Positions 2,555 to 51,719 of a stretch of DNA of 60,892 bases are shown here, piece by piece. Location: the IMG/VR virus record IMGVR_UViG_3300045988_133230, one strand, 5' to 3'. The position numbers and the translations under genes were made by a program. Each line of letters begins with the position of its first letter. Position 1 is the stretch's first letter. The stretch is from a virus. Lineage: Duplodnaviria; Heunggongvirae; Uroviricota; Caudoviricetes. The notes beneath the pieces are model-generated. The model worked only from the letters and a program-made list of their open reading frames with translations. It did not search any database and was not told where the DNA came from.

Positions 2555-3031
2555 ATGCAGGCACTAAATTCCCAGCGTAAAGCTTTCCTCGATATGGTGG
2601 CATGGTCAGAAGGAACGGATAACGGACGGCAGAAAACCAGAAATCATGGTTATGACGTCATTGTAGGCGGAGAGCTATTTACTGATTACTCCGATCACCC
2701 TCGCAAACTTGTCACGCTAAACCCCAAACTCAAATCAACAGCCGCCGGACGTTATCAGCTTCTTTCACGCTGGTGGGATGCTTACCGTAAACAGCTTGGT
2801 TTGAAAAACTTCTCCCCCAAAAGCCAGGACGCAGTGGCATTGCAGCAGATTAAAGAGCGTGGCGCTTTACCGATGATTGATCGCGGTGATATCCGTCAGG
2901 CTATTGATCGTTGCAGCAATATCTGGGCGTCGTTACCTGGTGCAGGTTACGGTCAGTATGAACATAAAATCGGTGACCTGATTTCCCGGTTTAAAGAGGC
3001 TGGTGGGGTGGTAAATGAAGTTGAGCTATAA
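2555..3031 (+). CDS. R: endolysin, lambda R-like lytic transglycosylase
   Basis: 158 aa; N-terminal MxALNSQRKAFLDMxAWSEGTDNGRQKT matches lambda R from memory. Confidence 0.85.
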   Translation: MQALNSQRKAFLDMVAWSEGTDNGRQKTRNHGYDVIVGGELFTDYSDHPRKLVTLNPKLKSTAAGRYQLLSRWWDAYRKQLGLKNFSPKSQDAVALQQIKERGALPMIDRGDIRQAIDRCSNIWASLPGAGYGQYEHKIGDLISRFKEAGGVVNEVEL

Positions 3032-3449
3032 GCTGGTTATCTCTGCTTTCTTCGTTACTGTCATTGGTTCTTTCATCTGGTCAGCCAACCACTACTACAG
3101 CAAATATCAGTACGAAAAGAAACGTGCTGATGAAGCTGTACAAAATGCCAAATTGGCAACTGCCATTACCAATAACGTCCTGCAATCACTGCAAATTGTC
3201 AATACAGTACTGGAGGCTAACCAGCATGCAAAACAGCAGATCGCACTGGAGTCACAGAGAACCCAGGAAGATATCAAAATGGCTGTTGCGGATGATGATT
3301 GTGCTTCACGTCCTGTGCCTGCTGCCGCTGCTGACCGGTTGCGGAAGTACGCGGACAGTTTACGTAACAGTACCTCCAATTCCGCTTCCAGCTACTCTGA
3401 CTTTGGAAACACCAGTACCGCACATACCCGATACTCTGACCTATGGTGA
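3015..3449 (+). CDS. Rz: i-spanin Rz
   Basis: N-terminal TM then coiled-coil-like sequence; overlaps endolysin stop; contains embedded lipoprotein ORF. Confidence 0.75.
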   Translation: MKLSYKLVISAFFVTVIGSFIWSANHYYSKYQYEKKRADEAVQNAKLATAITNNVLQSLQIVNTVLEANQHAKQQIALESQRTQEDIKMAVADDDCASRPVPAAAADRLRKYADSLRNSTSNSASSYSDFGNTSTAHTRYSDLW

Positions 3450-3540
3450 CAGTCTGGAGTTGAATGTGAGTCTGATGTCAGCGTTGGAACAGTGTAATCT
3501 TGATAAAGCGACAATAAAAAATATCGACGCTAACAAGTAA
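3292..3540 (+). CDS. Rz1: o-spanin Rz1 lipoprotein (overlapping Rz in +1 frame)
   Basis: MMIVLHVLCLLPLLTGC lipobox followed by proline-rich sequence; start assigned by me at 3292. Confidence 0.55.
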   Translation: MMIVLHVLCLLPLLTGCGSTRTVYVTVPPIPLPATLTLETPVPHIPDTLTYGDSLELNVSLMSALEQCNLDKATIKNIDANK

Positions 3541-3602
3541 AAGGGCATGTAATTTCATAGAGATGATTCCATGTTAATATTGCTCTTTTAACTGGAGGTA
3601 TT

Positions 3603-4091
3603 ATGATTGATTGGAATATGTGGTCTGCTATTGGGGCTTGTGGTTCGGCTATCGCGTCTTTGGGGGCGTTGTGTTATGCACGCAAGGCGTTAAACACATG
3701 GAATAGACAAGAGCAATTTAAAGTAAAGTTAGAGTTTAAAAGAGCTTTACTTGAGCTGGAGGATGCCTTTGAGGCAATGCCCGATAATTGGGATTCCACA
3801 CAATATAGAATAGCTAAAACAAGAGTTAAACAGCAGTATAATGCTGTTGTTCACCGAGTTGATGATGAAGCACAACTATATTTCATGAAAGAAAACCTTG
3901 AATCAGCATACCAGAATGCAGTGAGAGCATGGGTTTTATGTGAAGGGGGGATTAAAGATAAAAGTATACATGATGAATGGAGACAACTCAGGACTGATTA
4001 TAGTCAATATATTCTGACTGGTGGAAATAAAAAGTGCTACTTATCAAAAATAGAAAAAATATATTCTAGAATTGTAGTGTTCATAGATTGA
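3603..4091 (+). CDS. hypothetical 162-aa protein with N-terminal membrane anchor
   Basis: AT-rich ORF between lysis and packaging genes; one N-terminal hydrophobic helix then helical soluble region. Confidence 0.5.
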   Translation: MIDWNMWSAIGACGSAIASLGALCYARKALNTWNRQEQFKVKLEFKRALLELEDAFEAMPDNWDSTQYRIAKTRVKQQYNAVVHRVDDEAQLYFMKENLESAYQNAVRAWVLCEGGIKDKSIHDEWRQLRTDYSQYILTGGNKKCYLSKIEKIYSRIVVFID

Positions 4092-4137
4092 TTTTTATAT
4101 GAGAGAGACAAGTACTCTCTCATTATGGATATTTTAC

Positions 4138-4488
4138 ATGCCACCACGAACCCCAAAAGCCTGCCGCGTTCGCGGCTGCCGCGATACCACTACTGATCCG
4201 TCAGGCTATTGCGAAAGCCACAAAAGCGAGGGCTGGAAGCAATACAAGCCAGGACAATCCCGTCATCAGCGCGGTTATGGTTCTAAGTGGGATGTTATTC
4301 GCGTGCGTGTGCTGCAACGTGACAAAGGCCTGTGTCAGTTATGTCTGCGTGCTGGTGTGGTACGTGAGGCGAAAACCGTTGACCACATCATTCCTAAAGC
4401 GCATGGCGGCACAGATGCCGACAGCAATCTGCAGAGTCTGTGCTGGCCGTGCCACAAGGCGAAGACGGCCCGTGAACGGCTAAAGTGA
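4138..4488 (+). CDS. HNH endonuclease (packaging-associated)
   Basis: CxxC...DHIIPKAHGG...N...CWPCH HNH motif; immediately upstream of terminase small subunit. Start taken at ATG 4138 (ORF track 4099). Confidence 0.75.
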   Translation: MPPRTPKACRVRGCRDTTTDPSGYCESHKSEGWKQYKPGQSRHQRGYGSKWDVIRVRVLQRDKGLCQLCLRAGVVREAKTVDHIIPKAHGGTDADSNLQSLCWPCHKAKTARERLK

Positions 4489-4613
4489 TAATAATTCTCA
4501 ACTGTCTGAGGGGAGGGGCGGGTCAAATCTCTGCGGCCTGACGTCTTCCGGACTGCCCGCCCCATCGTTTTTTTATACCCGCGAAAAATGAAATTTAACC
4601 AGGAGTGCCGCAT

Positions 4614-5108
4614 ATGGCTGGAACGGCGGGGCGTTCCGGGCGTCGCCCCAAGCCAACGGCGCGCAAGGCGCTGGCCGGAAACCCCGGCAAGCGAGCCCTG
4701 AATAAAGATGAACCTGTTTTTACGCCCATCAAAGGTGTTGAGCCACCGGAGTGGTTCGCTGAAGAAGATCTCCCTCTCGCCACGATCATGTGGCAACTGA
4801 CAACCAAAGAACTCTGCGGTCAGGGCCTGCTGTGCGTGACTGACCTCGCGGTGCTTGAGCGGTGGTGCGTGGCCTACGAGTTCTGGCGACGTGCCGTGAA
4901 AAATATTGCCATACAGGGCAACACCATCACCGGTGCAATGGGCGGCAGGGTCAAAAATCCGGAGCTGACCGCCAAAAAAGAACAGGAGTCCGAGATGAGC
5001 AGCACGGGGGCAATGCTCGGACTCGACCCCAGCAGCCGCCAGCGTCTGATTGGCCTGGCGGGGCAGAAGAAAGCCACTAACCCGTTTCTGAAAATCATCG
5101 AGTCATGA
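4614..5108 (+). CDS. terminase small subunit (P27-family like)
   Basis: Basic N-terminus [14 protein letters not shown]; AGGAG RBS 9 nt upstream of ATG 4614; overlaps large subunit start. Confidence 0.7.
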
Positions 5109-6838
5109 GCCGGAAATCTTACCCCAACGTAAATGCTGCCAATCAGTATGCCCGTGATGTTGTGCGCGGAAAGATTGTGGCCTGCCAGTTTGTGATTCAG
5201 GCCTGCCAGCGCCATCTTGATGACCTGATGGCGGAAAAAAGTAAGTCGTTTCGTTACCGCTTCGACAAGGACCTGGCTGAACGGGCCGCCAAATTTATTC
5301 AGCTGTTGCCGCACACCAAGGGTGAGTGGGCATTCAAGAGGATGCCCATCACGCTGGAGCCGTGGCAGCTATTTGTGGTCTGCTGTGCGTTTGGCTGGGT
5401 CAATAAAGGGTCCCGGCTGCGCCGCTTCCGGGAGGTGTATACCGAAATCCCCCGTAAGAACGGCAAATCGGCAATCTCTGCCGGTGTTGCCCTGTATTGT
5501 TTTGCCTGTGATAACGAGTTTGGCGCGGAAGTGTATTCCGGTGCCACGACAGAGAAACAGGCGTGGGAAGTCTTTCGCCCGGCGCGACTGATGTGTAAAC
5601 GCACACCCATGCTGACGGAAGCGTTCGGGATTGAGGTTAACGCCTCAAACATGAATCGTCCGGAGGATGGCGCGCGGTTTGAACCGCTGATCGGTAACCC
5701 CGGTGATGGTTCATCACCCCACTGTGCGGTGGTGGATGAATATCACGAGCACGCCACCGATGCGCTTTACACCACGATGCTTACCGGGATGGGGGCGCGA
5801 CGTCAGCCACTGATGTGGGCCATTACTACTGCCGGGTACAACATTGAGGGGCCGTGCTACGACAAGCGACGGGAAGTTATCGAGATGCTCAACGGGTCGG
5901 TACCCAACGATGAACTGTTCGGGATCATCTATACCGTTGACGAAGGCGATGACTGGACCGACCCGCAGGTGCTGGAAAAAGCTAACCCGAATATTGGCGT
6001 GTCGGTTTATCGCGAATTTTTGTTAAGTCAGCAGCAGCGTGCGAAAAATAACGCCCGTCTGGCAAACGTCTTTAAAACAAAACACCTCAATATCTGGGTG
6101 TCGGCGCGTTCGGCGTATTTCAACCTGGTGAGCTGGCAGAGCTGCGAGGATAAATCACTGACTCTTGAGCAGTTCGAGGGGCAGCCGTGCATTCTGGCCT
6201 TTGACCTGGCGCGTAAGCTGGATATGAACAGCATGGCGCGACTTTATACCCGCGAGATTGACGGTAAAACGCATTACTACAGTGTGGCCCCGCGTTTCTG
6301 GGTACCGTATGACACGGTGTACAGCGTCGAGAAAAATGAAGATCGCCGGACAGCCGAACGCTTTCAGAAATGGGTGGAAATGGGCGTTCTGACCGTTACC
6401 GATGGTGCGGAGGTGGATTATCGCTACATCCTCGAGGAGGCCAAAGCGGCGAACAAAATCAGTCCGGTCAGTGAGTCACCCATCGACCCCTTCGGGGCGA
6501 CCGGGTTGTCACATGACCTTGCTGATGAAGACCTGAACCCCATCACTATCATTCAGAACTACACCAACATGTCCGACCCGATGAAAGAGCTGGAAGCGGC
6601 AATTGAATCGGGGCGCTTTCATCATGATGGCAATCCCATCATGACCTGGTGTATTGGCAACGTGGTCGGCAAAACCATTCCGGGTAACGATGATGTGGTG
6701 AAGCCCGTCAAAGAGCAGGCGGAAAACAAAATCGATGGTGCAGTTGCGCTGATTATGGCGGTTGGCAGAGCCATGCTGTACGAGAAAGAAGACACGCTGT
6801 CTGACCACATTGAGTCCTATGGGATCCGCTCGCTTTAA
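5105..6838 (+). CDS. terminase large subunit
   Basis: 577 aa; ATPase and nuclease regions typical of HK97-type large terminases; position between small subunit and portal. Confidence 0.85.

Positions 6839-48012: not shown

Positions 48013-48038
<26 letters not shown>
47493..48038 (+). CDS. nu1: terminase small subunit Nu1
   Basis: MEVNKKQLADIFGASIRTIQNWQEQGMPV... matches lambda Nu1. Confidence 0.95.

Positions 48039-51719
<3,681 letters not shown>

Follow-up and report, generated by a model that had tools for sequence, protein, structure and literature searches.

A 162-residue PHROG 6169 protein as the very probable moron payload at the lysis-packaging boundary of an SfV/SfII-like E. coli prophage

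Between the spanin genes and the HNH-terminase block of a temperate prophage lies an open reading frame (ORF) whose base composition differs from that of its surroundings, raising the questions of what kind of gene it is, how it might be expressed and what its product might do. We analyzed this locus within a stretch of 60,892 nt, referred to in full as the window. Judged by sequence similarity, the window is an E. coli-like chromosome with an SfV/SfII/SfI-like temperate prophage, the structural region of which is 97% identical to SfV/SfII/SfI-like phages. The ORF at 3603-4091 is very probably the payload of a moron in this prophage. Morons are horizontally acquired, independently transcribed accessory cassettes. 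In the summary given in PMC3594210, they are described as additions with deviant GC content and a promoter and terminator of their own, allowing expression from repressed prophages.

As read directly from the sequence, the ORF lies on the + strand, starts with ATG at 3603, ends with TGA at 4089-4091 and encodes 162 amino acids. Its GC content is 0.37, as compared to 0.45 in the 2 kb upstream and 0.55 in the 2 kb downstream, so that the single AT-rich ORF described in the initial annotation is confirmed. The gene, its cassette and its neighbours are as follows:

2225-2551, upstream of the 162-aa gene: lambda-family holin
2555-3031, upstream of the 162-aa gene: GH24-type endolysin
3015-3449, upstream of the 162-aa gene: Rz-like i-spanin
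ending at 3540, upstream of the 162-aa gene: Rz1/LysC frame embedded in Rz
3510..4133, no strand assigned: replaceable cargo cassette, bounded by breaks in similarity and comprising the 3' end of Rz1, the intergenic region, the ORF and the downstream hairpin
3594..3598, + strand: Shine-Dalgarno (SD) sequence GGAGG, read directly from the sequence
3603..4091, + strand: protein-coding gene for 162 aa, PHROG 6169 family
4138 (start taken from annotated relatives) to 4488, downstream of the 162-aa gene: HNH endonuclease
4605-5108, downstream of HNH: P27-family small terminase (TerS)
5105-6838, downstream of TerS: large terminase (TerL)

The mechanically called HNH ORF begins at 4099, within the hairpin; its start in RefSeq relatives is equivalent to 4138. 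As the end of the SfII genome maps to window position 4489, cos lies directly after HNH. Elsewhere in the window, the right part (about 40000-60892) contains ompC and the head region of a second, lambda-like prophage, with a gpA-type large terminase at about 48013-49938 and a portal and an S49 peptidase in the same region; no second PHROG 6169 member was found anywhere in the 60,892 nt. Upstream of the lysis genes, two AT-rich genes on the - strand (326-901 and 909-1937) lie between a Q-like gene and the holin. Their products, a 191-aa multi-TM protein and a 342-aa protein, match the PADLOC candidate defence system PDC-M53 (M53B, E 1.7e-54; M53A, E 2e-31), as well as PHROGs 8257 and 9879. In relatives, this Q-holin slot instead carries a DNA methyltransferase, a nucleoid-associated protein or an ATP-binding protein.

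The ORF is a real gene and not a chance reading frame. When compared with its 82%-identical allele in E. coli BCE049 (L002), it gave a dN/dS of 0.33 overall, of 0.16 over codons 1-72 (dS 0.22) and of 0.33 from codon 73 to the end (dS up to 1.0). This purifying selection (dN/dS 0.16-0.33), the GGAGG ribosome-binding site, the existence of homologues and a confident AlphaFold2 (AF2) model together establish that the gene is real. The gene is also dispensable and decaying in some prophages, as copies among the IMG/VR and genome loci are frameshifted or split (L026, L077 and L090).

The bounds of the cassette follow from comparison with relatives that carry other cargo, to which similarity ends near 3509 and is restored at about 4119-4133. 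The close relatives SfII and vB_EcoM-689R6 have unrelated genes in the slot, and the cargo in other relatives may be a DUF2441 gene, the trypsin-like SfII_57, phrog_5789, a GrlR-family regulator or none. The distribution of the cargo is patchy: the target allele was found in 9 of 5426 complete E. coli genomes and a 184-aa homologue (28% identity, E 8e-18) in the same slot in 27 E. coli genomes, as compared to approximately 830-1175 of the E. coli genomes with the flanking HNH/Rz sequences. In E. coli FT130 (NZ_CP040090.1), both the target allele and the 184-aa homologue are present, each in a prophage of its own. The prophage with the target allele (L001) is, among E. coli sequences, the nearest to the region; it is degraded, with IS1 upstream of the holin and TerS followed directly by the tape-measure gene, and the ORF in it is still intact.

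For the family-wide analysis, we used 73 IMG/VR loci, four genome loci and the loci from contig look-ups, which form 39 groups at 90% protein identity. Over 40 non-redundant loci, the median GC content of the gene was 0.38, as compared to 0.49 and 0.50 in the flanks, and the gene was AT-rich relative to its flanks in every locus examined. When the three ORFs upstream of the gene were considered in each locus (111 in total), 19 matched endolysin families and others matched spanin or holin families, several unrelated types being represented. Among the next three ORFs downstream (107 in total), 26 matched small-terminase families (Terminase_4, 9; DUF1441, 7; Terminase_2, 7; Nu1, 2; Sf6-type, 1) and 8 matched HNH. 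The usual position is thus lysis, then the gene, then packaging, whatever the type of module. A 138-aa subgroup is found between TerL and the portal (L097-L099 and gp03 of phage CobraSix). The slot between Rz and Nu1, which in lambda is occupied by bor, is exactly where family members are found in lambda-like relatives, and the earlier proposal of a moron in the bor position is thus upheld: the gene is accessory, compositionally foreign and placed in a variable slot. Slot neighbours seen in family loci include Acb2/Tad1-hairpin proteins, a protein kinase, colicin/pyocin immunity proteins, the IraP anti-adaptor, Mom, Rha regulators and trypsin-like peptidases, and the slot is thus seen to be a general accessory-gene hotspot.

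Should the cassette be an independently transcribed unit, signals for the start and end of transcription would be expected around the gene. A simple promoter scan revealed no + strand promoter near the gene in the window, and the candidate signals of the window copy are the following:

3552..3580, + strand: weak sigma-70 promoter-like site (score 8 of 13, not above shuffles in the window copy)
4090..4133, + strand: post-stop stem-loop with core ATGAGAGAG-N7-CTCTCTCAT at 4099-4123, terminator-like with a poor U tract

The promoter-like site consists of a -35-like ATTTCA at 3552-3557 (3/6), a 17-nt spacer and an extended -10, TGtTAATAT, at 3572-3580 (4/6 plus TGn), and its position matches that of a -10-like hexamer found throughout the family. 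Defined as a match of at least 5/6 to TATAAT with A2 and T6 required, 12-45 nt upstream of the start, this hexamer is present in 36 of the 40 family loci, as compared to 16 of 172 control genes, namely other gene starts within the same loci (Fisher 1e-23), and 7 of 37 AT-rich controls. Within the family, the clade of the window copy and a single further locus form the exceptions. The distance of the hexamer from the start has a mode of 25-27 nt, its T, A, A and T positions (TA..AT) are at least 90% conserved in the leader alignment, and a GTGnCn element recurs 17 nt upstream of it in family leaders. An intrinsic terminator, defined as a GC-rich hairpin with a T-run within 110 nt of the stop, was found in 20 of 39 family loci and in 26 of 173 controls (p 4.5e-6). 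The stem-loop of the window copy is stable (dG -14.1 kcal/mol, z -3.35, with 1 of 200 shuffles equally stable) and passes only relaxed terminator criteria. Other cargo cassettes in the same slot have a hairpin and T-run of their own. The case for a moron is strong at the family level, and the window copy looks partly degenerate. In a subset of family leaders (L010:2460-2500, L030, L041, L083, L087, L100, L071 and L096, among others), a palindrome, CAGGCA-N9-TGCCTG, followed by TGTGATAATGC, overlaps the -35 position. The window copy does not have this palindrome, which could act as an operator for some regulator.

The family leaders share a further feature. A pyrimidine-rich arm (CCTC, CTCAT, CGCCTC and others) follows the -10-like hexamer by 1-4 nt and pairs with the SD arm, the loop between the two being rich in A and U. 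In the window copy, the 5' arm of the corresponding stem overlaps the -10-like element:

3567..3597, + strand: predicted SD-pairing stem UUCCA.GUUAA / UUAAC UGGAG (MFE -6.8 kcal/mol, z -1.3)

Relative to shuffles, leaders of 40 nt fold more stably in the family than in controls (median z -1.23 vs 0.12, MWU 6e-6). RNAalifold predicted no structure on the MAFFT leader alignment, in which the stems are out of register, and the helix was assessed by counts of the named structure and by a covariance model. For the 6-bp helix, 71% of cells pair in the MAFFT alignment, as compared to 64.2 +/- 2.1 in shuffles (1/500) and 39-59% in slid registers, and 75.2% pair in the covariance-model alignment, as compared to 65.9 in shuffles (0/500) and 36-57% in slid registers; as the family leaders are related sequences, these shuffle counts overstate independence and should not be read as probabilities. 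UA/CG exchanges are seen at the central pairs of the helix, and the covariance model matches only family leaders in 417 kb.

We also calculated how much free energy is needed to open the SD 5-mer, comparing a long RNA that extends 70 nt upstream with a short one that begins at the predicted transcription start. For the family, the cost was 6.09 kcal/mol in the long and 1.98 kcal/mol in the short RNA (n=37, median difference 4.72), while for control genes, the values were 3.30 and 2.40 kcal/mol (n=172, median difference 0.43; MWU 4.7e-8). The effect is small in the window copy (1.54 vs 0.92 kcal/mol) and large in its close relatives (11.3 vs 3.1 in L001 and 6.8 vs 0.5 in L002). As transcription is predicted to start about 7 nt after the -10, the short transcript would be without most of the 5' arm. 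We thus infer a two-transcript gate, in which the cassette's own mRNA, given this predicted start, would be translatable, while the late read-through mRNA would be translated poorly. In phage T4, the SD sequences of genes e and soc are sequestered in a longer early transcript and free in a transcript started inside the hairpin. The likeness lies in a promoter placed such that the gene's own transcript lacks the anti-SD arm, while the longer RNA is occluded. The direction is, however, reversed, in that it is the late read-through RNA of the PHROG 6169 cassette that would be silent.

Residues 1-161 of the product match positions 4-164 of the 165-position PHROG 6169 profile (E 2e-67), a family annotated as of unknown function. 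No match was obtained in Pfam or NCBIfam, among PADLOC-DB 2.0 system components at E <= 1 (library from 2023), in a profile search of PDB sequences or among holin families. When 1.84 billion representatives were searched exhaustively with a profile, 45 proteins passed a cutoff of E <= 1e-3, and 27 of these also passed E <= 1e-10; almost all have a length of 138-220 aa. A second, word-indexed profile search added no members. All 45 come from Enterobacterales prophages or temperate phages, with named members in Salmonella, E. coli, Shigella, Citrobacter, Enterobacter, Serratia, Yersinia, Pantoea and Atlantibacter. Among 50,697 phage records, the family occurs in only two, namely Salmonella phage 118970_sal3 and Enterobacter phage CobraSix. 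The latter, in which gp03 is the family member, has a temperate gene set (integrase, excisionase and CI/Cro/CII). The family was thus seen only in prophages and in these two temperate phages, and never in a lytic phage. Conservation in strictly lytic relatives, named initially as the observation that would refute the moron reading, was therefore not seen. The family is small, narrow and uncharacterised, and we found no literature on its accessions or on PHROG 6169. DUF4760, a UniRef label on some cluster members, was rejected, as none of 31 family members matched the Pfam model at E <= 1; the literature found on DUF4760 has no bearing on the family.

The family alignment contains a hydrophobic segment, a juxtamembrane A..AL.TW..QE..K.K.EFK motif, MP..W, W[VI].[CT]E.LF, a Trp, a Tyr and a C-terminal FVF. 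Many members also have an acidic N-terminal tail (MDADLISYE...), which the window clade does not. The initial annotation saw no recognisable motif in the protein, which holds for Pfam, NCBIfam, PADLOC and PDB but not for the PHROG 6169 family, with its conserved motifs. Direct profile comparison revealed no homology to lambda Bor (hhalign probability 0.2%), lambda SieB (0.2%), P22 SieA (0.6%) or HK97 gp15/YebO (0.2%), and no Pfam match to Bor or SieB was obtained for the family either.

The protein is likely to be a membrane-anchored helical bundle. The three parts that will be referred to are the following:

3618..3680, + strand: N-terminal hydrophobic segment, residues ~6-26, predicted membrane anchor, N-out (from hydropathy and charge bias)
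3603..3790, + strand: conserved N-terminal module, anchor and juxtamembrane helix with AL.TW..QE..K.K.EFK and MP..W
3791..4088, + strand: divergent C-terminal part of the four-helix bundle, 52-72% DNA identity to L002

The hydrophobic segment is uncharged, and in the window copy it is marginal as a transmembrane (TM) helix: its mean Kyte-Doolittle hydropathy (KD) over 19 aa is 1.47, below the usual threshold, its summed Hessa dG is +2.9 kcal/mol, and 68% of its residues are Gly, Ala, Ser, Thr or Cys. Over the 40 non-redundant loci, the segment is clearly TM-like, with a median KD of 1.88 and a Hessa dG of +0.56. The single N-terminal TM helix proposed initially is thus clearly predicted for the family and only marginally for the window copy. 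A releasable anchor of the SAR type was considered for the Gly/Ala/Ser-rich segment and set aside; other family members present ordinary TM hydrophobicity. A lipoprotein reading of IGAC (residues 10-13) was rejected, as a basic n-region is missing and the family does not conserve Cys13.

On the N-terminal side of the segment, net charge is zero or negative in 40 of 40 loci, while the 15 residues after it are net positive in 35 of 40, a bias that, by the positive-inside rule, places the N-terminus outside and the bundle in the cytoplasm. We consider this N-out/C-in topology, predicted from charge bias, to be somewhat more probable than not. It argues against a Bor-like protein of the outer envelope; with no Bor homology, no credible lipoprotein signal and a helical domain predicted to be cytoplasmic, a Bor-like envelope reading is not supported. 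AF2, run with a 31-sequence alignment, returned a model with a pLDDT of 86.8 and a pTM of 0.74. The model comprises a long helix (2-58), which includes the hydrophobic segment, and helices at 65-77, 91-116, 120-139 and 144-156, arranged as a four-helix bundle, the first helix of which runs on without a break from the hydrophobic N-terminal segment. Fold searches with the model returned only generic four-helix bundles with non-significant scores. Remote homology search and structure prediction thus led to PHROG 6169 only, to a four-helix model and to generic fold matches.

The two parts of the gene differ in how they vary. The N-terminal module is 90-98% identical to L002 at the DNA level and holds invariant or near-invariant columns in the family alignment. 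From about 3790 to about 4114, DNA identity between the window and L002 drops to 52-72%, after which it is again 90%. The C-terminal part of the bundle has thus apparently been exchanged between alleles by recombination, with a breakpoint near 3790, while the anchor module was kept. Diverged copies can also be stacked. In an Enterobacter prophage (L025/L045), two paralogues that are 29% identical (1839-2360 and 3995-4555 of that locus) share one lysis-terminase slot, with a phrog_6581 gene between them, a Rha-like regulator upstream and HNH downstream. In another locus, a 190-aa phrog_16957 protein (L018:5626-6198, + strand) is encoded immediately downstream of a family member and has in common with the family only the acidic N-tail and TM module (hhalign 96.8%, 44 columns). 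Its C-terminal domain is unrelated to that of the family, and the anchor would thus seem to be a module that can move between proteins.

These observations can be assembled into one explanation, to which, taken as a whole (moron, bitopic protein, two-transcript gate and protective role), we assign a probability of about 0.35. The ORF would be the payload of a cassette inserted at the boundary between lysis and packaging (HNH, cos, terminase) of an SfV/SfII-like temperate prophage, and its product a 162-aa bitopic inner-membrane protein with a short acidic N-terminus facing the periplasm. One weakly hydrophobic helix, rich in small residues, would span the membrane and run on into the cytoplasm, where it would form the first of the four helices of the bundle. 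Family leaders would have a sigma-70 -10 element some 25 nt ahead of the start codon, followed directly by the anti-SD arm. Transcripts from the cassette promoter, being without this arm, would be translated, for example in the lysogen, while late read-through transcripts, which contain it, would be translated poorly. Of the roles considered, the most likely for the product would be protection, with expression from the prophage and action at the cytoplasmic face of the inner membrane, by superinfection exclusion or by abortive defence. The N-terminal anchor, which is conserved, would then be constant, and specificity would reside in the C-terminal bundle, which can be swapped.

The component of this explanation that concerns function, namely exclusion or defence, is by itself possible rather than likely. 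The constant anchor with a variable domain, the stacked paralogues and the temperate-only range would fit phage-phage conflict. It should be noted, however, that position in the slot does not imply defence, as the slot also carries genes for Acb2/Tad1, IraP and GrlR, and that we found no homology to proteins of known function that links PHROG 6169 to any role. The most specific form of the proposal, namely that PHROG 6169 is a new single-gene family of inner-membrane exclusion or abortive-infection proteins with a swappable cytoplasmic specificity domain, restricted to lysogeny by the gate, is more doubtful still.

Other explanations should be considered against the same data. The one that survives best, although we regard it as unlikely, is that the protein is a conversion or counter-defence factor and not an exclusion protein, one that modulates envelope stress, signalling or fitness of the host or blocks a membrane-associated defence. 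The moron architecture would be the same under this explanation, the slot is also home to GrlR-family, IraP, Acb2/Tad1 and colicin immunity genes, and a TM segment joined to a four-helix bundle resembles, if only generically, the sensor domains of Tar, NarX and QseE. Homology to any such factor is, however, absent, the gene occurs in phage contexts only, none of the loci examined containing a chromosomal homologue outside a prophage, and rapid allele diversification together with the stacking of paralogues is more typical of phage-phage conflict.

Less probable again is an auxiliary lysis protein, made late, that would tune holin triggering or the timing of lysis as an antiholin-like protein or regulator. 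In most loci, the gene does lie directly downstream of the spanin genes and on the same strand, the ORFs upstream match endolysin, spanin and holin families, and the membrane segment of the window clade is rich in small residues. Yet most phages whose lysis genes (S/R/Rz) are nearly identical do without the gene. It is found with at least four unrelated holin and endolysin types and, in one subgroup, lies between TerL and the portal. It has a -10-like element and terminator of its own, the hairpin is predicted to cut translation from late read-through RNA, and two diverged copies can occupy one slot. The patchy presence, the independence of holin type, the separate signals and the TerL-portal position thus make a role tied to lysis unlikely. 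Finally, that there is no functional gene here, but only a chance ORF or decaying remnant within AT-rich filler DNA, is very improbable, since the frameshifted family members and the weak expression signals of the window copy are set against dN/dS values of 0.16-0.33 at dS of up to 1.0, full-length conservation with invariant motifs over 39 clusters at <90% identity, the pLDDT of 86.8 and the strong SD.

At present, the gene is one more uncharacterised moron, with the arrangement of promoter and SD hairpin as the most noteworthy by-product of the analysis. This -10/anti-SD/SD arrangement would be a simple means by which a moron located within a late operon is translated in lysogens and not during lytic growth, and it could help to recognise other lysogen-expressed cargo. 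The gate, if true, would keep the factor from disturbing the phage's own lytic cycle. Should exclusion or abortion prove to be the function, the family would represent a compact single-gene membrane defence in Salmonella, E. coli and Shigella prophages, and its natural allele series, with a conserved anchor, swapped bundles and stacked paralogues, is well suited to the mapping of specificity.

How the cassette compares with known systems should be judged at several levels. As architecture, it can be set beside the lambdoid morons defined for HK97 and HK022 (Juhala et al. 2000, in the summary given by PMC3594210). Like these, it is an extra gene relative to close relatives, of low GC content, located between late genes and in late-gene orientation, with promoter-like and terminator signals of its own across the family; the difference is that these signals are weak in the window copy. 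With lambda Bor, which is expressed in lysogens (PMC7067206), the gene has in common its accessory nature and, in lambda-like relatives, the same slot between Rz and cos. It differs in that bor is on the opposite strand, while the PHROG 6169 gene is on the late-gene strand, and in that Bor is an outer-membrane lipoprotein, while the soluble domain of the PHROG 6169 protein is predicted to be cytoplasmic. P22 SieA and lambda/P22 SieB are likewise membrane-associated prophage proteins of similar size (163-184 aa) from enterobacterial lambdoid phages, although they are located in the immI and pL regions and have no detectable homology to the family. HK97 gp15, a moron-encoded superinfection exclusion protein of the inner membrane (PMC3594210), differs in being a YebO-related protein of 62 aa, as compared to the 162-aa four-helix bundle protein of PHROG 6169, to which it has no sequence relationship. 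It is, nonetheless, a small moron protein that is predicted to insert into the inner membrane and is encoded in late-gene orientation ahead of a terminator, and with this likeness in mind, its block of DNA entry could serve as a working model for the mechanism of the PHROG 6169 protein.
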